Assembly: GCF_003334785.1 (NCBI RefSeq)
Contig: NZ_QOWV01000010.1
Length of the DNA stretch: 64,000 nt
Strand: one strand, 5' to 3'
Source: Escherichia coli
GTDB taxonomy: Bacteria; Pseudomonadota; Gammaproteobacteria; Enterobacterales; Enterobacteriaceae
Shown: piece by piece, positions 1 through 29,221 of the stretch
Numbering within the stretch: position 1 is the first letter of the stretch
How the letters are laid out: each line of letters begins with the position of its first letter
Translations under genes and position numbers: made by a program
Notes under the pieces: generated by a model
The model's input: the letters and a program-made list of their open reading frames with translations, nothing else
Told to the model about the DNA's origin: nothing
The model's database searches: none

Positions 1-1561
1 GCTGGCGTGCCATCTGTTCGGTTTGCTGCATTAGCGCCAGTGAGCGGGTCAATTCGCCTTTGCAGTGCAGCACTTCACCCAGCACCGAGGTTGCCACAAT
101 GCGGCTATAGAACCAGCCCGGCGGCAGCTCTTCCAGTGCCAGTTTTGCCAGCCGTTCCGCTTCATCCGGATTACCATCGTTAATCGCCACCTGGGCGCGC
201 AGAGCGTTAAATTCTGCGTGCATGGTGTCTTCTCTGATGTCCTTGATTTCATGTTCAGCACGGGCTAGCAGGGTGTTAACTTCGCCGTAGCGATGTTGGC
301 TTTGCATCAGCCACGCCTGCAATAACACCAACTGCGGATTTTCCAGCAAGCTGTCCCACGGCAGGGCCTTAAGCGACTCTTCCAGCAGCGACAGTTCGCT
401 ATGGTTGAACAGACTCCAGGCGTGATTAAGCAGAATATCGCGCAGCATCAGCGCATCGCCTGCCGCCAGCGCATGATGAATCGCTTCGCTGGGAAATCCC
501 TGGGCCATCCAGCTTTCTGCGGCGGCACGGTGGATTTCCGGCAGCTCCGCCGCCAGTTCCCACTGGCAGCGCTGGCGCAGGAAGTTACCAAACAGCGGGT
601 GATAGCAGAACCACTCGCCGGTATCATCCATCCGCTGTAAAAACAGCCCCTGACGCTCAATCTCTTCGAGGCGCATTTGCCCGTTTTCTTCGCCGGTCAC
701 ACGGGTGATGAGGGCATCGTTCATTGAGCGCAAAATGGCGCTTTTCAACAGAAAATGGCGCGTTGCGAGATCGACGTTATCCAAAACCTCATCGACCAGA
801 TAATCCGAAAGATGGCTGGCATTGATTCCCGCCAGGCGGCGTGCCGACTTATGGGCTGAGTGGGTATTCTGCCGGGCGGAGAGGGCGATTAGCTGTAGTG
901 CCGTCGCCCAACCGGAAACGTCATCGCAAATCCGACTGCTTTCTGCGGCTTCAATCGGCGATGACAGACGGCAATCAAAAAACTGCTTCGCTTCCTGATG
1001 GGTAAATGCCAGTTGCTGACTGCCAATTTCCAGCAGTTGATCACGAACACGCAGATTGGCAATGCCCAGTTGCGGAAGGTTGCGTGACAACACCACCAGG
1101 GTGAGATTTTCTGGTTGATGGCGAATAAAGAAGCGCATTGACTCGTGGATCACTGGATTAGTGATCAGATGATAGTCATCGATGACCAGATAAAGTGGGC
1201 TATGCCATTCCGCCAGCTCAATGAAAAGCTGGGCGAAGAGTGACGTCAGGCTGGCATATTGCCGTTTTTGCGCCATCGTCTCACATATCGCACAGTGACC
1301 GTTGGTTGCCTGCTGCACGGCGGCAATGAGATAGCTGGCGAAACGCTCTTGCTGGTTATCACCTTCATCCAGCGAGTACCAGCCGATATCGTTTTTGCCT
1401 GCCGCCCACTGGGAAATGAGGGTGGTCTTTCCGTAGCCCGCAGGACTCGTGATCAGCGCCAGCCGGAAGTTGTTCGCGCCGGAAAGTTTAGCCAGCAGGC
1501 GCTCACGAACCACGGTATGGTCGAGTCGAACCGGACGACTTAGTTTTGACGGAATCAGCAT
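1..1561 (-). CDS. malT: MalT, maltose-regulon transcriptional activator; N-terminal part only (about 520 codons), 3' end lies beyond the window start
   Basis: Reverse-strand translation from ATG (complement 1559-1561) reads [23 protein letters not shown]...; no stop before window edge; divergent from malPQ. Confidence 0.9.
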
Positions 1562-1682
1562 AGTTAATCACTTCACTGTGGAAAATGAGGAAATATTATT
1601 TTTTTTGCGCTTCGTAATTAATGGTTATAAGGTCGGCCAGAAACCTTTCTAATGCAAGCGATGACGTTTTTTTATGTGTCTG

Positions 1683-1704
1683 AATTTGCACTGTGTCACA
1701 ATTC
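1683..1704 (-). promoter_or_regulatory. CRP-like site (TGTGA-N6-GCAAA) upstream of malT
   Basis: Reverse strand reads aaTTGTGAcacagtGCAAAttca about 125 bp upstream of the malT ATG; malT is known to be CRP-dependent. Confidence 0.4.
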
Positions 1705-2069
1705 CAAATCTTTATTAACAACTCACCTAAAACGACGCTGATCCAGCGTGAATACTGGTTTCCCTTATGTTCATCAGATTCATTTAAGCAAGGGTTTCTT
1801 CTTCATTCCTGATGAAAGTGCCATCTAAAAAGATGATCTTAATAAATCTATTAAGAATGAGATGGAGCACACTGGATATTTTACTTATGAAACTGTTTCA
1901 CTCCTTTACTTAATTTATAGAGTTACCTTCCGCTTTTTGAAAATACGCAACGGCCATTTTTTGCACTTAGATACAGATTTTCTGCGCTGTATTGCATTGA
2001 TTTGATGCTAATCCTGTGGTTTGCACTAGCTTTAAGTGGTTGAGATCACATTTCCTTGCTCATCCCCGC

Positions 2070-2105
2070 AACTCCTCCCTGCCTAATCCCCCGCAGGATG
2101 AGGAA
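2070..2105 (+). promoter_or_regulatory. malP promoter region with MalT-box-like motifs (GGAKGA and inverted TCCTCC)
   Basis: ctcctccc and ggatgagga motifs 70-100 bp upstream of the malP ATG. Confidence 0.4.
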
Positions 2106-2148
2106 GGTCAACATCGAGCCTGGCAAACTAGCGATAACGTTGTGTTGA

Positions 2149-4566
<2,418 letters not shown>

Positions 4567-4575
4567 GGAAGCTCG

Positions 4576-6660
4576 ATGGAAAGCAAACGTCTGGATAATG
4601 CCGCGCTGGCGGCGGGGATTAGCCCCAATTACATCAATGCCCACGGTAAACCGCAGTCGATTAGCGCCGAAACCAAACGGCGTTTGCTTGACGCGATGCA
4701 TCAACGTACCGCCACGAAAGTGGCGGTAACGCCAGTCCCGAATGTCATGGTTTATACCAGCGGCAAAAAAATGCCGATGGTGGTGGAGGGCAGCGGCGAA
4801 TATAGCTGGCTGCTGACCACCGAAGAAGGAACGCAGTACAAAGGCCATGTAACGGGGGGCAAAGCGTTCAATCTACCGACGAAGCTGCCGGAAGGTTATC
4901 ACACGCTGACACTCACCCAGGACGACCAGCGCGCGCATTGCCGGGTGATTGTCGCCCCGAAACGCTGTTACGAACCGCAGGCGTTGCTGAATAAACAAAA
5001 GCTGTGGGGTGCCTGCGTTCAGCTTTATACGCTGCGATCGGAAAAAAACTGGGGTATTGGGGATTTTGGCGATCTCAAAGCGATGCTGGTGGATGTGGCA
5101 AAACGTGGCGGGTCGTTCATTGGCCTGAACCCGATTCATGCGCTCTATCCGGCAAATCCGGAGAGCGCCAGCCCATACAGCCCGTCTTCTCGCCGTTGGC
5201 TGAATGTGATTTATATCGACGTTAACGCCGTTGAAGATTTCCATCTTAGCGAAGAGGCTCAGGCCTGGTGGCAGTTGCCGACCACGCAACAGACGCTGCA
5301 ACAGGCGCGCGATGCCGACTGGGTCGATTACTCCACGGTTACCGCCCTAAAAATGACAGCATTACGAATGGCGTGGAAAGGTTTCGCGCAACGTGATGAT
5401 GAGCAGATGGCCGCGTTTCGCCAGTTTGTTGCAGAGCAGGGCGACAGCCTGTTCTGGCAGGCAGCCTTTGATGCGCTACATGCCCAGCAAGTGAAAGAGG
5501 ACGAAATGCGCTGGGGCTGGCCTGCATGGCCAGAGATGTATCAGAACGTGGATTCACCAGAAGTGCGTCAGTTCTGCGAAGAACATCGTGATGACGTCGA
5601 TTTTTATCTCTGGTTGCAGTGGCTGGCTTACAGCCAGTTTGCCGCCTGCTGGGAGATAAGCCAGGGCTATGAAATGCCGATTGGCTTGTATCGTGATCTG
5701 GCGGTTGGCGTAGCGGAAGGTGGGGCGGAAACCTGGTGTGACCGTGAACTATATTGCCTGAAAGCATCGGTTGGCGCGCCGCCGGATATCCTCGGCCCGT
5801 TGGGGCAGAACTGGGGATTACCGCCAATGGACCCGCATATCATCACCGCGCGTGCCTATGAACCGTTTATCGAGCTGTTGCGTGCCAATATGCAAAACTG
5901 CGGCGCATTACGAATTGACCATGTGATGTCGATGCTGCGTTTGTGGTGGATACCGTATGGCGAGACGGCAGATCAGGGCGCGTATGTTCACTATCCGGTG
6001 GATGATCTGCTCTCGATTCTGGCACTCGAAAGTAAACGTCATCGCTGTATGGTGATTGGTGAAGATCTCGGTACCGTACCGGTAGAGATTGTCGGTAAGC
6101 TGCGCAGCAGCGGTGTGTACTCTTACAAAGTGCTCTATTTCGAAAACGACCACGAGAAGACGTTCCGTGCACCGAAAGCGTATCCGGAGCAGTCGATGGC
6201 GGTTGCGGCGACACATGACCTGCCAACGCTGCGCGGTTACTGGGAGAGCGGGGATCTAACGCTGGGCAAAACCCTGGGGCTGTATCCGGATGAAGTGGTA
6301 CTGCGCGGTCTGTATCAGGATCGCGAACTGGCGAAGCAAGGGCTGCTGGATGCACTGCATAAATATGGTTGTCTGCCGAAACGTGCCGGGCATAAGGCAT
6401 CGTTGATGTCGATGACGCCGACGCTGAACCGTGGTTTGCAGCGCTACATTGCCGACAGTAACAGTGCTCTGTTAGGACTACAGCCGGAAGACTGGCTGGA
6501 TATGGCCGAACCGGTGAATATTCCTGGCACCAGTTACCAGTATAAAAACTGGCGACGCAAGCTTTCCGCAACGCTTGAGTCGATGTTTGCCGATGATGGC
6601 GTGAACAAGTTGCTGAAGGATTTGGACAGACGGCGCAGAGCTGCAGCGAAGAAGAAGTAG
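4576..6660 (+). CDS. malQ: 4-alpha-glucanotransferase (amylomaltase)
   Basis: 694-aa ORF 9 bp downstream of malP; operon arrangement malPQ. Confidence 0.97.
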   Translation: MESKRLDNAALAAGISPNYINAHGKPQSISAETKRRLLDAMHQRTATKVAVTPVPNVMVYTSGKKMPMVVEGSGEYSWLLTTEEGTQYKGHVTGGKAFNLPTKLPEGYHTLTLTQDDQRAHCRVIVAPKRCYEPQALLNKQKLWGACVQLYTLRSEKNWGIGDFGDLKAMLVDVAKRGGSFIGLNPIHALYPANPESASPYSPSSRRWLNVIYIDVNAVEDFHLSEEAQAWWQLPTTQQTLQQARDADWVDYSTVTALKMTALRMAWKGFAQRDDEQMAAFRQFVAEQGDSLFWQAAFDALHAQQVKEDEMRWGWPAWPEMYQNVDSPEVRQFCEEHRDDVDFYLWLQWLAYSQFAACWEISQGYEMPIGLYRDLAVGVAEGGAETWCDRELYCLKASVGAPPDILGPLGQNWGLPPMDPHIITARAYEPFIELLRANMQNCGALRIDHVMSMLRLWWIPYGETADQGAYVHYPVDDLLSILALESKRHRCMVIGEDLGTVPVEIVGKLRSSGVYSYKVLYFENDHEKTFRAPKAYPEQSMAVAATHDLPTLRGYWESGDLTLGKTLGLYPDEVVLRGLYQDRELAKQGLLDALHKYGCLPKRAGHKASLMSMTPTLNRGLQRYIADSNSALLGLQPEDWLDMAEPVNIPGTSYQYKNWRRKLSATLESMFADDGVNKLLKDLDRRRRAAAKKK

Positions 6661-6669
6661 AGTGCGGTT

Positions 6670-6762
6670 GATGCCGGATGCGATGCTTGACGCGTCTTAT
6701 CCGGCCTACTAATTCATCCCGAATCGTAGGCCGGATAAGGCGGTCACGCCGCATCCGGCAGT
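6670..6762. repeat. BIME: two REP (palindromic unit) copies in inverted orientation
   Basis: gccggatgcgatgcttgacgcgtcttatccggcctac ... gtaggccggataaggcggtcacgccgcatccggc between convergent malQ and gntT. Confidence 0.8.
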
Positions 6763-6770
6763 CAGTGTTA

Positions 6771-8087
6771 TCAAATCACCATATTCAGCAGCAGACAGCC
6801 TACCAGACCGCACACCGAGATAATGGTTTCCAGCATCGACCAGGATTTGATGGTCTCGCCGATAGTCAGGTTAAAGTACTCTTTGAACAGCCAGAAGCCC
6901 GGATCGTTCACATGAGAGAAAATCACACTACCGGAACCAACCGCAATAACCATCAGCTCCGGGCTAACACCCGTCGTTGCAATCAGCGGTGCCGCGATAC
7001 CACCCGCAGTGATTGCCGCAACGGTTGCGGAACCCAGCGCGATACGCAGTACGGCAGCAATCGACCAGGCCATCAGCAGCGGAGAAATGTTGGTTTCGTG
7101 CATCATGGAAGCAATGTATTTGTCCACGCCGCTGTCTACCAGCACCTGCTTGAACGCACCGCCACCACCGATGATCAACAGCATCATCGCAATGATTTTG
7201 ATGGAAGAAACCAGCGTGTCGTTAATCTGATCCATTGAACGACCACGGTTTAGACCAAAGGTGAACATCGCAATCAGCACGGCAATCAGCGTTGCCATTA
7301 CCGGGTCACCGAGGAACTCCGCTACCGGCAGGAAAGCGTGACCTTTCGGCAGGATCATTTCGGCAATCGCACGCATCGCCATCAGTACTACCGGCACCAG
7401 AGAGGTCCAGACGCTGACGCCAAAGCTCGGCATCTCTTCTTCGCTGAAGGTTTTCGCGCTGTAGAGACCTTCCGGAATTGGCTTATCGATACCTTTCAAC
7501 ACGCGAGCGTAAACCGGACCGGCGAGAATCACGGTCGGGATTGCCAGAATAGTACCGTACAGCAGGGTTTTACCCATATCGGCATTGAAAATGGTGGCAA
7601 TCGCAGTCGGACCCGGATGCGGTGGCAGGAAGCCGTGGGTCACAGACAGTGCAGCCGCCATTGGTACACCAACATACAGCAGTGGAATATTCGCAGAAGC
7701 CGCGATGGTAAACACCAGCGGCAGCATCAGCACAAAGCCCACTTCATAGAACAGGGCAAAACCAACGGTAAAACCGGTCAGTACCACCGCCCACTGGATG
7801 TGTTTTTTACCAAATTTGGCAATCAGCGTGGTGGCGATACGTTGTGCGCCACCGCAGTCTGCCAGCATTTTGCCCAGCATTGCGCCAAAACCCATGATCA
7901 GGGCAAGGCTACCGAGCGTCCCGCCGACACCGGCTTTGATGGAGCCAATAACTTTATCCAGCGGCATTCCTTGCATTAATCCAACAGCAAGCGCCACGAG
8001 GACGAGAGCGATGAAGCCGTTCATTTTGAAGCGGATCATCAGGAGCAACAACAAGATTACACCGATAGCAACAATGACTAATGGCAT
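6771..8087 (-). CDS. gntT: High-affinity gluconate:H+ symporter (GntP family)
   Basis: 438-aa polytopic membrane ORF; sequence recognised as GntT. Confidence 0.95.
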   Translation of the reverse strand: MPLVIVAIGVILLLLLMIRFKMNGFIALVLVALAVGLMQGMPLDKVIGSIKAGVGGTLGSLALIMGFGAMLGKMLADCGGAQRIATTLIAKFGKKHIQWAVVLTGFTVGFALFYEVGFVLMLPLVFTIAASANIPLLYVGVPMAAALSVTHGFLPPHPGPTAIATIFNADMGKTLLYGTILAIPTVILAGPVYARVLKGIDKPIPEGLYSAKTFSEEEMPSFGVSVWTSLVPVVLMAMRAIAEMILPKGHAFLPVAEFLGDPVMATLIAVLIAMFTFGLNRGRSMDQINDTLVSSIKIIAMMLLIIGGGGAFKQVLVDSGVDKYIASMMHETNISPLLMAWSIAAVLRIALGSATVAAITAGGIAAPLIATTGVSPELMVIAVGSGSVIFSHVNDPGFWLFKEYFNLTIGETIKSWSMLETIISVCGLVGCLLLNMVI

Positions 8088-8264: not shown

Positions 8265-8390
8265 TGGCGTTTGAGAATCACCAGAGCGGGGTAAATTTAA
8301 ATTATGAGAGGTTGGTCATATTATCGCGGGGAAACGAACCGAGGATTTGACAAAGCAATGCTGCGCCAACGTCTGGCACATGTTCAACGT

Positions 8391-8446
<56 letters not shown>

Positions 8447-14690: not shown

Positions 14691-14814
14691 ATATCGCAGC
14701 GAAAATATAATTCGAATAGTGAATTACCCGGACTGGCTAATGTTTAATTAAGGTTTCAGTTGTTAATGAAATGATAAATATTGCCGGAATATATTATGAG
14801 TTTGGCTGTGGAAT

Positions 14815-14846
14815 AAAAATGCCGGAGATATTCTCCGGCACTTTTA
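14815..14846 (-). terminator. Rho-independent terminator downstream of tex
   Basis: gccggagatattctccggc hairpin flanked by T runs on both strands. Confidence 0.65.
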
Positions 14847-14865
14847 TGTCAGGCAAGGCGTTCGT

Positions 14866-14937
14866 TGCCAGATGCGGCGTGAACGCCTTATCTGCCCTAC
14901 GATTTCGTGCAAATTCGAACCGTAGGCCAGTACGGGC
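14866..14937. repeat. Degenerate REP-like palindromic element(s)
   Basis: gccagatgcggcgtgaacgccttatctgccctac ... gtaggccagtacgggcg. Confidence 0.5.
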
Positions 14938-14939
14938 GT

Positions 14940-17261
14940 TTAACGTTTTTTGCCCATTGCCGCCGCCAGCGCATCCATCATCGCGCTATTACCGGCAGGC
15001 TGCGCTTCACGACCGCGTGGTTTGGCTGCCGGGCGGTTGTTTTGCGGGCGTTCATTACCGCCGCCGCGACGAGCGTTGGTTTCGCCAGGCTGCTCATCCA
15101 GGCGCATAGTCAGGGCGATACGTTTACGCTGAAGATCCACTTCCAGCACTTTCACCTTCACAATGTCGCCCGCTTTCACCACGGTATGCGGATCTTCCAC
15201 AAACTTGTTCGACAATGAAGAGATGTGAACCAGGCCGTCCTGATGCACGCCAATATCGACAAACGCGCCAAAGTTGGTGACGTTGGTCACTGCGCCTTCG
15301 AGGATCATACCCGGTTGCAGGTCGTTCATTGTCTCGACGCCATCGGCAAACTGAGCGGTTTTAAATTCCGGACGCGGATCGCGACCCGGTTTTTCCAGCT
15401 CTTTGATGATGTCGGTTACCGTCGGCACACCGAATTTCTCATCAGTAAAGTCAGACGCTTTCAGGTTACGCAGTTCGCTGCTGTTACCCATCAGATCTTT
15501 CAGTGCCTGCTGTGTTGCTGCCAGAATGCGTTCCACCACCGGATAGGCTTCCGGGTGAACGGTAGACGCGTCCAGCGGGTTATCACCGTGGTTAATGCGC
15601 AAGAAGCCCGCGCACTGCTCGAAGGCTTTCGGCCCCAGACGGCTCACTTTTAACAGTTGCTGACGGTTCTGGAACTGACCGTTCTCATCGCGCCAGGCAA
15701 CGATGTTTTGCGCCATCATGCGCGTCAGGCCCGCCACGCGGGTTAACAGCGGAACAGAAGCAGTGTTGAGATCGACGCCAACGGCGTTTACGCAGTCTTC
15801 TACTACTGCGTCCAGTTTGCGGGCCAGTTGCGTCTGGCTGACGTCATGCTGATACTGACCTACGCCGATAGATTTCGGATCGATTTTCACCAGCTCCGCC
15901 AGCGGATCCTGCAAACGGCGGGCGATAGACACCGCGCCACGCAGCGAAACGTCGAGATCCGGGAACTCCTGTGCAGCCAGCTCGGAAGCCGAGTAAACCG
16001 ACGCGCCTGCTTCGCTGACGATTACTTTCTGCGCGGTCACTTTCGGGAACTGCTTCTGCACATCGAGATAGAAACGCTCAGTTTCGCGGGAAGCTGTACC
16101 GTTACCGATCGCTACCAGTTCAACGTTATGTTTTTCACACAGCGCAGCAACGGTCATCGCTGCTTTTGCGGCCTGTCCGGTGTGCGGGTAAATGGTGTCG
16201 GTCGCCACCAGTTTGCCAGTGGCATCGACCACCGCCACTTTTACCCCAGTACGCAGACCCGGATCGAGGCCCATCGTTGCACGCAGTCCGGCAGGGGCCG
16301 CCATCAGCAGATCGTGCAGGTTACGGGCAAAGACGTTGATTGCTTCATCTTCCGCACGTTCGCGCACGGTGCCCATCAGTTCGGTTTCCAGATGCATCAG
16401 CACCTTGATGCGCCACGTCCAGCTCACCACGCCTTTGCGCCAGCTATCCGCCGGGGCATTGTTCAGGCGCAGGCCAAGGTGATCCATGATGATTTGCTCG
16501 CAATAGCTCTCTTTGGGCGGCTCATCGAACTGTGGATCGGCATTCAGCGAAAGCTGAAGTACGCCTTCGTTACGCCCACGGAACATCGCCAGCGCGCGGT
16601 GAGAAGGCACCGTGGACAACGGTTCGTGATGATCGAAATAGTCGCGGAATTTCGCCCCTTCCTCTTCTTTACCGCTCACCACCGTAGAAACCAAATGCGC
16701 GTTCTTCCACAGATAATCACGCACTTTCGCCAGCAGCGCGGCATCTTCGGCAAACCGTTCCATCAGGATATAGCGCGCGCCATCCAGCGCGGCTTTGGTA
16801 TCTGCCACGCCTTTATCGGCATCAACATATTGTGCAGCGGCGACTTCTGGCGTGTGTGACGGATCGCTCCACAGCAGGTCAGCCAACGGCTCAAGCCCTG
16901 CTTCAATGGCGATTTGCCCGCGGGTGCGGCGTTTAGGTTTGTAGGGCAGGTAGAGGTCTTCGAGTTCGGTTTTGCTTAGGGTGGCGTTGATGGCCTTCGC
17001 CAGATCATCGGTGAGTTTGCCTTGCTCGGAAATGGACTTGAGGATCGCCTGACGTCTCTCTTCCAGCTCGCGCAGATAGCTCAGACGCGTTTCCAGATTA
17101 CGCAGCTGCGTGTCATCCAGACCGCCGGTGATTTCCTTACGATAACGTGCGATAAACGGCACGGTATTCCCTTCGTCAAGCAGGCGAACGGCAGCGTCAA
17201 CCTGTTCCGGGCGCGCCTGAATTTCACCCGCAATAATGCGGCAGAACGAATCATTCATCAT
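14940..17261 (-). CDS. tex: Tex, transcription accessory protein (S1 domain, YqgF/HhH domains)
   Basis: 773-aa ORF; sequence recognised as YhgF/Tex. Confidence 0.95.
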
Positions 17262-28496: not shown

Positions 28497-29057
28497 ATGA
28501 GCAAATCATTACAAAAACCCACCATTCTGAATGTTGAAACTGTAGCCCGTTCCCGACTGTTTACCGTCGAGAGCGTGGATCTGGAGTTCAGCAATGGCGT
28601 GCGGCGTGTTTATGAACGAATGCGTCCAACCAACCGGGAAGCAGTGATGATTGTGCCGATTGTGGACGATCACCTGATCCTGATCCGCGAATACGCAGTG
28701 GGAACTGAATCCTACGAATTAGGTTTTTCGAAAGGATTAATTGATCCGGGTGAAAGCGTCTACGAAGCCGCTAACCGCGAGCTAAAAGAAGAGGTTGGAT
28801 TTGGAGCGAACGATCTGACTTTTTTGAAGAAGCTCAGCATGGCACCGTCTTACTTTTCCAGCAAAATGAATATCGTGGTAGCGCAAGATCTCTACCCGGA
28901 ATCACTGGAAGGCGATGAGCCAGAGCCGCTACCACAGGTGCGCTGGCCGCTGGCGCATATGATGGATTTGCTGGAAGACCCTGACTTCAATGAAGCGCGC
29001 AATGTCAGTGCGCTGTTCCTCGTGCGCGAATGGTTGAAAGGGCAGGGGCGAGTGTAA
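28497..29057 (+). CDS. nudE: ADP-compounds hydrolase NudE (Nudix)
   Basis: 186-aa ORF; Nudix box around GLIDPGESVYEAANRELKEEVG. Confidence 0.95.
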   Translation: MSKSLQKPTILNVETVARSRLFTVESVDLEFSNGVRRVYERMRPTNREAVMIVPIVDDHLILIREYAVGTESYELGFSKGLIDPGESVYEAANRELKEEVGFGANDLTFLKKLSMAPSYFSSKMNIVVAQDLYPESLEGDEPEPLPQVRWPLAHMMDLLEDPDFNEARNVSALFLVREWLKGQGRV

Positions 29058-29069
29058 ATGCGTGAAGTT

Positions 29070-29170
29070 TGCCTGATGCACAATGTTTATCAGGCTTATG
29101 GGGTTTCTGCAATTTATTGAGTTTTCACGATTTTGTTAGCCGGATAACGCGTTCACGCCGTATCCGGCAT
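29070..29170. repeat. REP-like palindromic units
   Basis: gcctgatgcacaatgtttatcaggc and gccggataacgcgttcacgccgtatccggc. Confidence 0.6.
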
Positions 29171-29196: not shown

Positions 29197-29221
29197 GAAA
29201 AGGCGCCGAAGCGCCTTTTTA
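29197..29221. terminator. Bidirectional rho-independent terminator between nudE and mrcA
   Basis: aaaaggcgccgaagcgccttttt with A/T runs on both sides. Confidence 0.75.

Follow-up and report, generated by a model that had tools for sequence, protein, structure and literature searches.

REP/BIME elements have been known since the work of Stern in 1984 and are described with the Gilson/Bachellier nomenclature. The palindromic units of E. coli are of types Y, Z1 and Z2, and the literature defines a conserved GTAG tetranucleotide as a REP feature. BIME-1 elements (RIP/RIB) have a Y-L-Z1 layout, in which a linker (L) of 35 nt joins the Y and Z1 units by their tails; BIME-2 elements combine Y and Z2 units with short linkers of the S and s, l or r classes, usually form tandem arrays and are gyrase targets. 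For the RNA level, the classical malE-malF REP stabiliser protects the 3' end of the upstream mRNA (Newbury 1987, as described in a citing paper), and REP325 of the yjdMN operon is a partial Rho-dependent terminator and mRNA stabiliser, with 3'-UTR hairpins that fix and protect the 3' end and Rho termination downstream (Harris et al. 2026 preprint). Rho-dependent transcripts end just beyond stable stem-loops that shield them from RNase II and PNPase; REPs are the location of 24% of these ends. Convergent gene pairs with REPs show higher expression. The 2026 preprint gives no significant genome-wide difference in mRNA half-life between a terminal REP and none, which counts against the reading favoured below.

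The DNA analysed here is a 64-kb stretch (hereafter, the window) that aligned to K-12 MG1655 with 99.96-99.99% identity, as the reverse complement of ~3,490,6xx-3,554,645. A first-pass annotation had reported palindromic REP/BIME units in five ranges and had taken them to support an E. coli-like host, a claim that was correct but understated, the window being E. coli itself. All five ranges, 6670-6762, 14866-14937, 29070-29170, 42046-42136 and 49818-49856, contain the elements described; the follow-up validates the recognition of the elements and fixes the host. We refer to them as site 1 (malQ/gntT), site 2 (yhgF/feoA), site 3 (nudE/mrcA), site 4 (trpS/yhfZ) and site 5 (yhfS/frlR). The curated MG1655 list, with REP names and coordinates taken from the supplement of the 2026 preprint, places REP248, REP249, REP251, REP252, REP253 and REP254 within the window; REP254, REP252, REP251 and REP249 are the elements at sites 1, 2, 3 and 5, and we infer that site 4 is REP250. 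The current RefSeq MG1655 record holds no repeat_region features, and Rfam at gathering thresholds gave zero matches across the window, which is uninformative for REPs. The elements were already known, with copies in the curated K-12 annotation, and they are ordinary E. coli genome content that carries little weight as a discovery. Our preferred reading, which we consider highly probable, is that they are catalogued members of the REP/BIME family that act as 3'-UTR hairpins and give mRNAs trimmed, protected 3' ends.

The family identity of the five sites was established by scans of the window and by copy number. Y, Z1 and Z2 consensus strings, validated by the exact match of two units, were used in a vectorised edit-distance scan. 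The units of the five sites had 0/34, 0/29, 1/34, 3/34, 4/34, 4/36, 5/36 and 6/29 errors, the matches were confined to intergenic DNA (~10% of the window), and nine real units compared with 0-2 matches per window in composition-preserving shuffles. With an independent BIME-1 HMM, built from 59 elements of other loci and species, the E-values were 2e-28 for site 4, 1.4e-23 for site 3, 1.6e-12 for site 1, 4.9e-11 for site 2 and 1.5e-4 for site 5; beyond these sites, no match below 0.01 was found in the window. All five sites (5/5) align formally with the consensus or profile, so that the refuting condition named in the first-pass annotation, a failure to match the REP consensus, did not arise. 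The tail motif CTTATCMGGCCTAC, allowing up to two mismatches, was found 7 times in the window against 0.31 expected. A GTAG/CTAC tail lies at the hairpin foot of 6 of the 8 units of the five sites and of REP253; it is altered in both site 3 units (CTAAC, CTTAT) and missing from REP248.

The units are 29-37-nt imperfect palindromes of type Y, Z1 or Z2, with single-unit MFE folds in which internal loops of one or two bases separate the two helices (-15 to -22 kcal/mol, z-scores -3.5 to -5.3). They are the longest de novo repeats of the window, and all 5,426 E. coli genomes have the Y unit in at least 40 places, whereas a single occurrence per genome would have refuted the family identity. In sequence, tail, imperfect stem, 3' extragenic placement and copy number they agree with the described E. 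coli REPs and nothing essential differs, the decayed members here being the Z1-like unit at 29070, the Z1 relic at 14922 and REP248. No tnpA-REP (Y1 transposase) gene lies beside the REPs, all genes of the window being annotated MG1655 genes; the REPs are dispersed, non-autonomous copies, not a REPtron. A tail match at 52936-52949 (two mismatches), inside frlB and without a palindrome, was rejected as chance.

Two weaker annotated elements had been overlooked, and both fit the family consensus poorly. REP253, after nfuA (8389-8424, minus strand; MG1655 3546223-3546258), consists of one divergent unit, Z2-like and with the tail CCTAC, that has 7/36 errors and a marginal HMM E-value of 0.08; it lies 22 nt past the nfuA stop and folds with -19.3 kcal/mol (z = -4.1). 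REP248, after tsgA (60857-60882, minus strand; MG1655 3493759-3493784), has a degenerate hairpin, GCCGGACGGCACTATCGTCGTCCGGC, with CTTTTCC after it (-20.3 kcal/mol, z = -5.6); it had no match in the consensus scan of the window and looks like a terminator. A hairpin with a T-tract that fails the scan, and a second element that is marginal, are what one would expect if the palindromes were plain intrinsic terminators or chance palindromes outside the REP family. For the five sites, the consensus scan, the HMM and the copy number refute this, and we set its probability at practically nil: their E-values are at most 1.5e-4, they have the family CTAC tail and no U-runs, and their sequence recurs at least 40 times per genome.

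The elements had been described as recurring at convergent or operon-end junctions. The placement holds, but only malQ/gntT, nudE/mrcA and yhfS/frlR are convergent; the other two sites are tandem, with yhgF/feoA and trpS/yhfZ each lying between same-strand transcription units. Every element follows a stop codon and lies in 3' untranslated DNA, ahead of the next promoter or of the gene that converges on it. In the window, REPs are present in 3/6 convergent regions, 2-4/22 same-strand gaps and 0/7 divergent regions, which matches the proportions published for the entire genome, ~60% convergent, 40% tandem and 1% divergent.

Site 1 (REP254, MG1655 3547888-3547974) is a single Z2+Y pair and is BIME-2-like. 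The Z2-type unit (6673-6709, plus strand) reads GCCGGATGCG...CTTATCCGGCCTAC, head to tail, with a CCTAC end; two of its 5/36 errors against the Z2 consensus are a GCCGGAT/ATCCGGC stem variant, and its hairpin has -21 kcal/mol (z = -5.3). A tail-to-tail linker of 16 nt follows (6710-6725), TAATTCATCCCGAATC, which is not the L motif and has no IHF core. The Y-type unit is inverted (6726-6760, minus strand), with 1/34 errors and a fold of -22.3 kcal/mol (z = -5.1). Together, the pair folds as a single hairpin of ~-65 kcal/mol (z = -8.8 and -9.4 for the two strands). Site 1 resembles BIME-2 in pairing Z2 with Y across a short non-L linker, but it is one pair and not an array, and site 5 is a lone Z2.

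In the mechanism that we propose, the units would be transcribed within the 3' UTR of the upstream gene and fold into hairpins. Transcription would continue past the REP until Rho halts it further downstream, and 3'-to-5' exonucleases would then trim the RNA to a few nt beyond the hairpin. The mRNA would thereby gain a fixed and protected 3' end, and where two genes converge both mRNAs would. Published Term-seq data demonstrate such ends for REP254 on both strands: Adams et al. 2021 (supplementary file 1) list 3' ends at MG1655 3547882(-), with a score of 143949, and at 3547980(+), which, converted through the alignment to MG1655, bound the span 6666-6764 of the window. The malPQ 3' end maps to 6764 (plus strand), 4 nt beyond the distal hairpin (score 143,949), and the gntT 3' end maps to 6666 (minus strand), 6 nt beyond its own distal hairpin; with these ends, the malPQ and gntT mRNAs overlap across the entire BIME. 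Supplementary file 2 of the same study gives a Rho termination region at 3547979(+). REP325 is likewise a set of 3'-UTR hairpins with Rho termination downstream, but it is a six-repeat array inside an operon, whereas REP254 is a single pair that serves convergent genes on both strands. The 3'-end mechanism is also demonstrated at REP253, where the nfuA mRNA ends at 8390 (minus strand), 3 nt beyond the hairpin (Term-seq, MG1655 3546256(+), in two listings), and a Rho termination region was published nearby, at 3546293(+).

The role in mRNA stabilisation or 3'-end definition that had been suggested for all five sites stood at site 1, and at the overlooked REP253, on published 3' ends; at sites 2-5 it did not gain such support, the intergenic regions of sites 2, 3, 4 and 5 having no curated Term-seq 3' ends in the one MG1655 dataset used. 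Low expression could be the cause of the absent ends. For these remaining elements we infer the mechanism. Published Rho termination regions are at 3547979(+), 3546293(+) and 3504972(+), and in the tables of the 2026 preprint REP248, REP251, REP252, REP253 and REP254 have Rho-binding peaks on them or 14-54 nt farther downstream.

Site 5 (REP249; 49820-49855, plus strand) is a Z2-type unit with 4/36 errors and a fold of -21.8 kcal/mol (z = -4.4), located 113 nt from the yhfS stop. The supplement of the 2026 preprint lists REP249 as overlapping a terminator at 3504796-3504824 that acts in both directions. On either strand, folding of 49710-49857 revealed a perfect palindrome with a 13-bp stem (49810-49840), GCGCCAGCATCGC-CGGAT-GCGATGCTGGCGC, which overlaps the left half of REP249 and forms a hairpin alternative to the REP fold.

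Sites 2, 3 and 4 are BIME-1 elements, with Y and Z1 tail to tail in single copies, in different states of decay. The Y-L-Z1 layout is complete at site 3 and partial at sites 2 and 4, where the linkers are 21 and 27 nt against the usual 35; of Z1, a degenerate unit is left at site 3 and a vestige at site 2. At site 3 (REP251, MG1655 3525479-3525576), a degenerate Z1-like unit (29070-29098, plus strand) has 6/29 errors and the tail CTTAT instead of CCTAC. The full-length L linker follows (29099-29136, minus strand; 35 nt), and the inverted Y-type unit (29137-29170, minus strand) has 4/34 errors and a tail mutated to CTAAC. The linker matches AAAATCGTGCAAATTCAATATATTGCAGAAACCTT at ~30/35 positions (~86%), a consensus derived from 63 35-nt linkers that we harvested from species-representative genomes with an exact Y-tail...Z1-tail pattern. 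BLAST with the site 3 linker alone reached no locus but the orthologous one, which it found in 4,104 genomes; the 45-mer is AT-rich and differs too much from other L linkers for BLAST to find them.

The site 3 linker contains an IHF-like core, ACTCAATAAATTG, at 29110-29122 (minus strand), with one mismatch to WATCAANNNNTTR; the core is perfect, AATCAATATATTG, in other E. coli strains, and the linker may bind IHF. This speaks for a role that is exerted first on the DNA, in which BIME-1 L linkers would recruit IHF and BIME-2 Y units gyrase, with effects on chromosome topology over RNA 3' ends. The literature reports a frequent IHF site in L linkers, and it finds gyrase cleavage over-represented in a subset of BIME-2, chiefly at Y units and independent of transcription. 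Gyrase binding is plausible at the Z2+Y element only, so that site 1 may serve as a gyrase target. However, the IHF-type linker survives at site 3 only, deletions of 8 and 14 nt having removed the core from the other two BIME-1 elements, and matches to the IHF consensus with at most one mismatch occur about once per kb in the window, which makes such a match weak on its own. Site 1 is a single pair, while the gyrase-rich BIME-2 of the published work are multi-copy arrays at other loci, and the 2026 preprint reports neither a chromosome-compaction role nor REP-REP contacts for REP325. The REP loci of the window are not mentioned in Kasho 2021. Overall, we regard a primarily DNA-level role as unlikely.

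At sites 2, 3 and 4, the REP would not be the terminal hairpin because a separate intrinsic terminator appears to lie beyond it; it may instead be a hairpin inside the 3' UTR or a relic in decay. At site 3, a GC hairpin flanked by A- and T-runs (29199-29221), AAAAGGCGCCGAAGCGCCTTTTT, directly past the mrcA stop, looks like a bidirectional intrinsic terminator distinct from the BIME. This reading rests on the fold and on direct inspection of the sequence; the consensus terminator scan missed the hairpin, probably since the A/T runs lengthen the stem.

Site 2 (REP252, MG1655 3539747-3539780) has a Y-type unit (14866-14900, plus strand) with 3/34 errors and a fold of -15 kcal/mol (z = -3.5), in which one stem change is compensated (G:C to A:T) and one is disruptive. 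The rest of the element (14901-14939) is a linker remnant and a Z1 relic: 21 nt of the BIME-1 L, GATTTCGTGCAAATTC|GAACC, with the IHF core deleted, then the decayed GTAGGCCAGTACGGGCG at 14922-14939, which abuts the yhgF stop (14940-14942, minus strand). The de novo repeat at this site reaches into the linker. In the direction of yhgF, the minus-strand fold of 14810-14939 gave a hairpin with a U-run beyond REP252 (14817-14846, minus strand), and this predicted intrinsic-terminator-like structure, rather than REP252, is likely the terminal hairpin of yhgF. The gene that the first-pass annotation called tex is yhgF.

At site 4, both units are perfect: a Y-type unit (42045-42079, plus strand; 0/34), 34 nt past the trpS stop (42010-42012), and an inverted Z1-type unit (42107-42136, minus strand; 0/29). 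The linker between them (42080-42106) is a 27-nt shortened L, AAAGTAATGCACATATTGCAAGGAAAT, without the WATCAA half of the IHF core. Past the BIME lies an intrinsic terminator-like hairpin with a T-run (42159-42190, plus strand), likely the end of the dam-rpe-gph-trpS transcript, and this terminator is kept in a strain that lacks the site 4 BIME. The label "REP" spans very different states in this window. At malQ/gntT it denotes a working hairpin that sets 3' ends in both directions, at nudE/mrcA a BIME-1 of the IHF type, and at yhgF and trpS what appear to be decaying relics behind real terminators.

Some hairpins lie close enough to a stop codon to suggest an effect on translation. A hairpin less than 15 nt from the stop may damp translation, by the distance rule of Liang, Rudd and Deutscher 2015 as summarised in the RepRanger paper. 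The distance from stop to hairpin is 12 nt for malQ (stop at 6658-6660), 11 nt for gntT (stop at 6771-6773, minus strand, to the outer stem base of the Y unit), 13 nt for nudE (stop at 29055-29057, to the Z1-like unit), 6 nt for frlR (stop at 49858-49860, minus strand, to the foot of the site 5 hairpin) and 9 nt for tsgA. Under this explanation, a REP hairpin near the stop codon would trigger tmRNA-mediated rescue and cut the yield of the upstream protein. The malQ mRNA, however, is highly abundant and has a strong REP-defined 3' end, and we take damping as the principal role to be rather unlikely.

The elements vary strongly among E. coli genomes. Across 5,426 genomes, REP254 is fully present in ~43% and absent or collapsed in ~56%, and the site 4 BIME is present in ~32%, with a BoxC-like repeat in its place in some strains. 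In many genomes, sites 2 and 3 reach only 80-95% identity, much less than the genes beside them. In most strains one arm of the site 2 Y unit has been lost, and one strain carries an IS1397 insertion in the loop of the Y unit at site 3. Several of the elements are dispensable in natural strains, a point against the 3'-UTR hairpin reading. REP253 has ~4 similar places per genome.

Such heavy variation in presence, form and sequence would be expected if most copies were neutral or selfish relics, spread by TnpA-REP/RAYT and tolerated after stop codons without a selected function. The IS1397 insertion, the two units without a GTAG tail and the one without a hairpin arm point the same way, and the literature reports that TnpA-REP cleaves and recombines BIMEs and that BIME numbers vary by strain. 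Against this, all malQ/gntT alleles seen hold a stable hairpin in place and very abundant K-12 3' ends are found there, REP249 is retained unchanged where the adjacent BoxC has been lost, and REPs are associated with genome-wide differences in expression. We give the relic explanation, as an account of most copies, somewhat less than an even chance; it is compatible with the 3'-UTR hairpin reading that we favour, and sites 2 and 4 are probably relics of this kind.

The malQ/gntT alleles were of three kinds: one has the full Z2+Y BIME, another carries the Y unit alone, and the third, the O157-type allele, has collapsed to 44 nt, with nothing but the two outer head arms left, joined as GCCGGATGCGA|TGCATCCGGC. 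A hairpin of -21 to -31 kcal/mol occupies exactly the same position in every allele seen. One conceivable, though doubtful, account of the series is precise excision of palindrome centres, by TnpA-REP or by collapse of hairpins during replication, under selection for a bidirectional 3'-end hairpin. If true, the alleles would give lineage-specific stabilities of the malPQ and gntT mRNAs. The polymorphism is a ready natural experiment on whether a REP tunes the expression of its neighbours.

Direct reading of the sequence confirmed that the palindromic elements reported by the first-pass annotation are real at all five places: malQ/gntT (site 1, 6670-6762), yhgF (tex)/feoA (site 2, 14866-14937), nudE/mrcA (site 3, 29070-29170), trpS/yhfZ (site 4, 42046-42136) and yhfS/frlR (site 5, 49818-49856). 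The interpretation attached to them, REP/BIME elements of an E. coli-like host, is supported in its essentials. To this the present analysis adds the anatomy of each site, a series of malQ/gntT alleles, locus-specific 3'-end evidence for two elements (REP254 and REP253), two annotated REPs that had been missed, and a correction of two sites to tandem placement. The window is E. coli chromosome and can be aligned over its whole length to K-12 MG1655 (99.94-99.99% identity) as the reverse complement of ~3,490,6xx-3,554,645. A 2-kb segment surrounding the finding matches many E. coli genomes at 100% identity, and 5,425 of 5,426 complete genomes of the species contain it. The MG1655 annotation was moved to window coordinates, with each start and stop codon checked; ~6.2 kb (10%) of the window is intergenic.

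Both strands of the window were scanned by edit distance for the Y, Z1 and Z2 types of palindromic unit. We take the strings used to be the consensus of these types, and consider them valid because two window units match with zero errors. All matches were intergenic: a Z2-like unit (6674-6709) and a Y unit (6726-6759, 1/34 errors) at site 1, a Y unit (14867-14900, 3/34) at site 2, a Z1-like unit (29070-29098, 6/29) and a Y unit (29137-29170, 4/34) at site 3, a Y unit (42046-42079, 0/34) and a Z1 unit (42107-42135, 0/29) at site 4, a Z2-like unit (49820-49855, 4/36) at site 5, and an additional unit, REP253, at 8389-8424. Shuffled controls of local composition gave 0-2 consensus matches per window. 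The REP tail motif alone occurred 7 times in the window against 0.31 expected; an occurrence inside frlB was rejected as a REP and ascribed to chance. REP units were also the longest repeats in the window by de novo repeat finding, and at sites 2 and 3 the common sequence runs past the Y unit into the linker. Across the species, the Y unit is found at no fewer than 40 places per genome in 5,426 of 5,426 E. coli genomes.

To obtain a model independent of these strings, BIME-1 elements were harvested with an exact pattern (Y-tail, 20-45 nt, Z1-tail) from other E. coli loci, Escherichia albertii, Pseudocitrobacter, Citrobacter, Kosakonia, Salmonella and a few more. Linkers were 35 nt long in 63 of the 135 harvested, and their consensus, AAAATCGTGCAAATTCAATATATTGCAGAAACCTT, is the L motif. 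In the window, a profile HMM trained on 59 complete Y-L-Z1 elements recovered site 4 (E = 2.1e-28), site 3 (1.4e-23), site 1 (1.6e-12), site 2 (4.9e-11) and site 5 (1.5e-4), so that none of the five failed to match REP on formal alignment. Beyond these sites nothing in the window scored below 0.08, the E-value of the REP253 unit (8388-8426). Exact enterobacterial BIME-1 matches also came from short contigs assigned to a Bacteroidales MAG and to Desulfosporosinus sp., most likely reflecting enterobacterial contamination in assembly or binning.

The window elements are already known, curated REPs. A 2026 preprint tabulates curated MG1655 coordinates in a supplement, and after conversion these agree exactly with the window positions for REP254 (3547888-3547974, convergent, malQ/gntT), REP253 (3546223-3546258, tandem, nfuA/gntT), REP252 (3539747-3539780, tandem, yhgF/feoA), REP251 (3525479-3525576, convergent, nudE/mrcA) and REP248 (3493759-3493784, tandem, tsgA/nirB); REP249 is listed as convergent at yhfS/frlR. 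The trpS/yhfZ element is presumably REP250, judging from the numbering, and under that name the window holds seven annotated REP elements. The first-pass annotation found the five strong ones but missed two weak ones, REP253 and REP248. The former, after nfuA, consists of one divergent unit, to which only ~4 places per genome are similar. REP248 (60857-60882, after tsgA), a terminator-like GC hairpin with a T-tract behind it, lacks the CTAC tail, and the Y/Z1/Z2 consensus scan gave no match to it either.

REPs occupy 3 of the 6 convergent intergenic regions (malQ/gntT, nudE/mrcA, yhfS/frlR), 4 of 22 same-strand gaps of at least 20 nt (yhgF/feoA, trpS/yhfZ, nfuA/gntT, tsgA/nirB) and 0 of 7 divergent regions in the window. 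This mirrors the published genome-wide placement (~60% convergent, 40% tandem and 1% divergent, with REPs in 207 of 704 convergent regions). The tandem REPs always lie on the 3' side of the upstream gene, and the earlier description of "convergent or operon-end junctions" is thus accurate, with the correction that two of the five sites are tandem, not convergent. Past the REP, site 2 (14817-14846), site 3 (29199-29221) and site 4 (42159-42190) each have a distinct hairpin with a U-run; no convincing independent terminator was found at sites 1 and 5 or at REP253.

Transcript ends in MG1655 were taken from the Term-seq and Rho-termination tables of Adams et al. 2021. The curated 3' end at MG1655 3547882(-) has a score of 143,949, against ~850-1,700 for neighbouring entries, and maps to window position 6764, on the strand of malQ and 4 nt beyond the distal (Y) hairpin of REP254. 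On the gntT strand, the end at 3547980(+), entered three times, corresponds to window 6666, 6 nt past the distal (Z2) hairpin; on the nfuA strand, 3546256(+) corresponds to position 8390, which is 3 nt beyond the hairpin of REP253. Rho-termination entries are present at 3547979(+), 3546293(+) and 3504972(+); frlR and REP249 lie ~190 nt upstream of the last one. Rho-binding peaks in the 2026 preprint either overlap REP248, 251, 252, 253 and 254 or lie 14-54 nt downstream of them, on the upstream-gene strand. The REP254 and REP253 data fit the model of Dar and Sorek, in which Rho stops transcription downstream, exonucleases trim back and a stable stem-loop sets the 3' end. At REP254 this holds on both strands, so that the malPQ and gntT mRNAs overlap over its full length. 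The proposed stabiliser role therefore holds at site 1, one of the five sites reported, and we infer it at the other four, because the intergenic regions of sites 2-5 have no curated 3' ends in that dataset. The REP249 entry records an overlap with a bidirectional terminator that an earlier, sequence-based study had described. Hairpins placed within 15 nt of a stop codon could also damp translation of the gene, which would concern malQ (12 nt), gntT (11), nudE (13), frlR (6) and tsgA (9).

Units and BIMEs are named here following Ton-Hoang et al. 2012. All single units fold into hairpins (-15 to -22 kcal/mol, z -3.5 to -5.3), and the whole site 1 region can form one hairpin of ~-65 kcal/mol as RNA from either strand. 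Site 1 consists of a Z2 and an inverted Y, tail to tail, separated by a 16-nt non-L linker; it has the unit composition of a BIME-2 and is a single pair. It is the only candidate gyrase target in the window, since a subset of BIME-2 elements shows enriched gyrase cleavage, mostly at Y units. Site 3, a reverse-oriented BIME-1, has a Y, a full 35-nt L linker (~30/35 consensus positions matched) and a degenerate Z1, the tails being mutated in both units. Its linker contains an IHF-like core, ACTCAATAAATTG, with one mismatch to WATCAANNNNTTR, and other E. coli strains have a perfect core, AATCAATATATTG, at this locus; by sequence, IHF binding is plausible at site 3 only. Site 4 has a perfect Y and Z1, its linker cut to 27 nt without the WATCAA half of the IHF core. 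At site 2 the Y unit is followed by 21 nt of linker from which the core has been deleted, and Z1 is only a vestige adjoining the yhgF stop codon.

A single Z2 unit makes up site 5. The left half of this unit, REP249, is overlapped by a perfect palindrome (49810-49840, GCGCCAGCATCGC CGGAT GCGATGCTGGCGC; 13-bp stem), which competes with the canonical REP hairpin in RNA folds, coincides with the listed bidirectional terminator and resembles a fused half of an inverted Z2 unit. Between yhfS and REP249, a GC-rich three-block repeat (TCCCCTCGCCCCTTTGGGGAGAGGGTTAGGGTGAGGGGA, 49757-49796) fits a BoxC/PIT (potential intrastrand triplex) element.

The elements vary among E. coli genomes. The K-12 form of the REP254 locus (6601-6830) is at least 80% covered in only 2,360 of 5,426 genomes, and three malQ/gntT alleles were aligned: the K-12 allele with a 110-nt spacer (6661-6770), a 65-nt allele keeping only the Y unit, and a 44-nt allele (O157:H7 and many others) reduced to the outer head arms of the two units, which meet at the junction GCCGGATGCGA|TGCATCCGGC. 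All form a hairpin (-21 to -31 kcal/mol, the 44-nt allele at -21). REP251 is present in 5,423 of 5,426 genomes, ~2,260 of them only 80-95% identical. In E. coli 95-3322, the IS3-family element IS1397, which targets palindromic units, sits in the loop of the site 3 Y unit (equivalent to ~29152). The K-12 arrangement of trpS/yhfZ occurs in only 1,735 genomes; in strain 05-3629 a BoxC-like motif of the TCCCCTCGCCCCTTTGGGGAGAGGGTTAGGGTGAGGGGA type replaces the BIME and the downstream terminator is conserved. At yhfS/frlR, BoxC is lost in some strains (e.g. STN0717-11) and REP249 stays identical. At yhgF/feoA, identity is only 80-90% in ~74% of genomes, and in the O157 allele the Y unit lacks its right arm. 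From this variation, several of the copies would seem to be relics in decay, with sites 2 and 4 certainly among them; variability between strains is known BIME behaviour (Ton-Hoang et al. 2012). A Pseudocitrobacter MAG (locus ~5950-6010) has a single REP just past the yhgF stop codon in its yhgF/feoA spacer, which points to an old insertion or to repeated targeting of the same 3' position.

The sole indel between the window and MG1655 is a 5-bp deletion (AATTC) at ~43641 in the yhfY/yhfX spacer, immediately preceded by an AT-rich palindrome, TAAATATTCAAAAAAATGAATATTTA (43616-43641). Similar motifs are found at two places upstream of yhfZ (42250-42299), so the palindrome may be an operator for a regulator of the yhf cluster.
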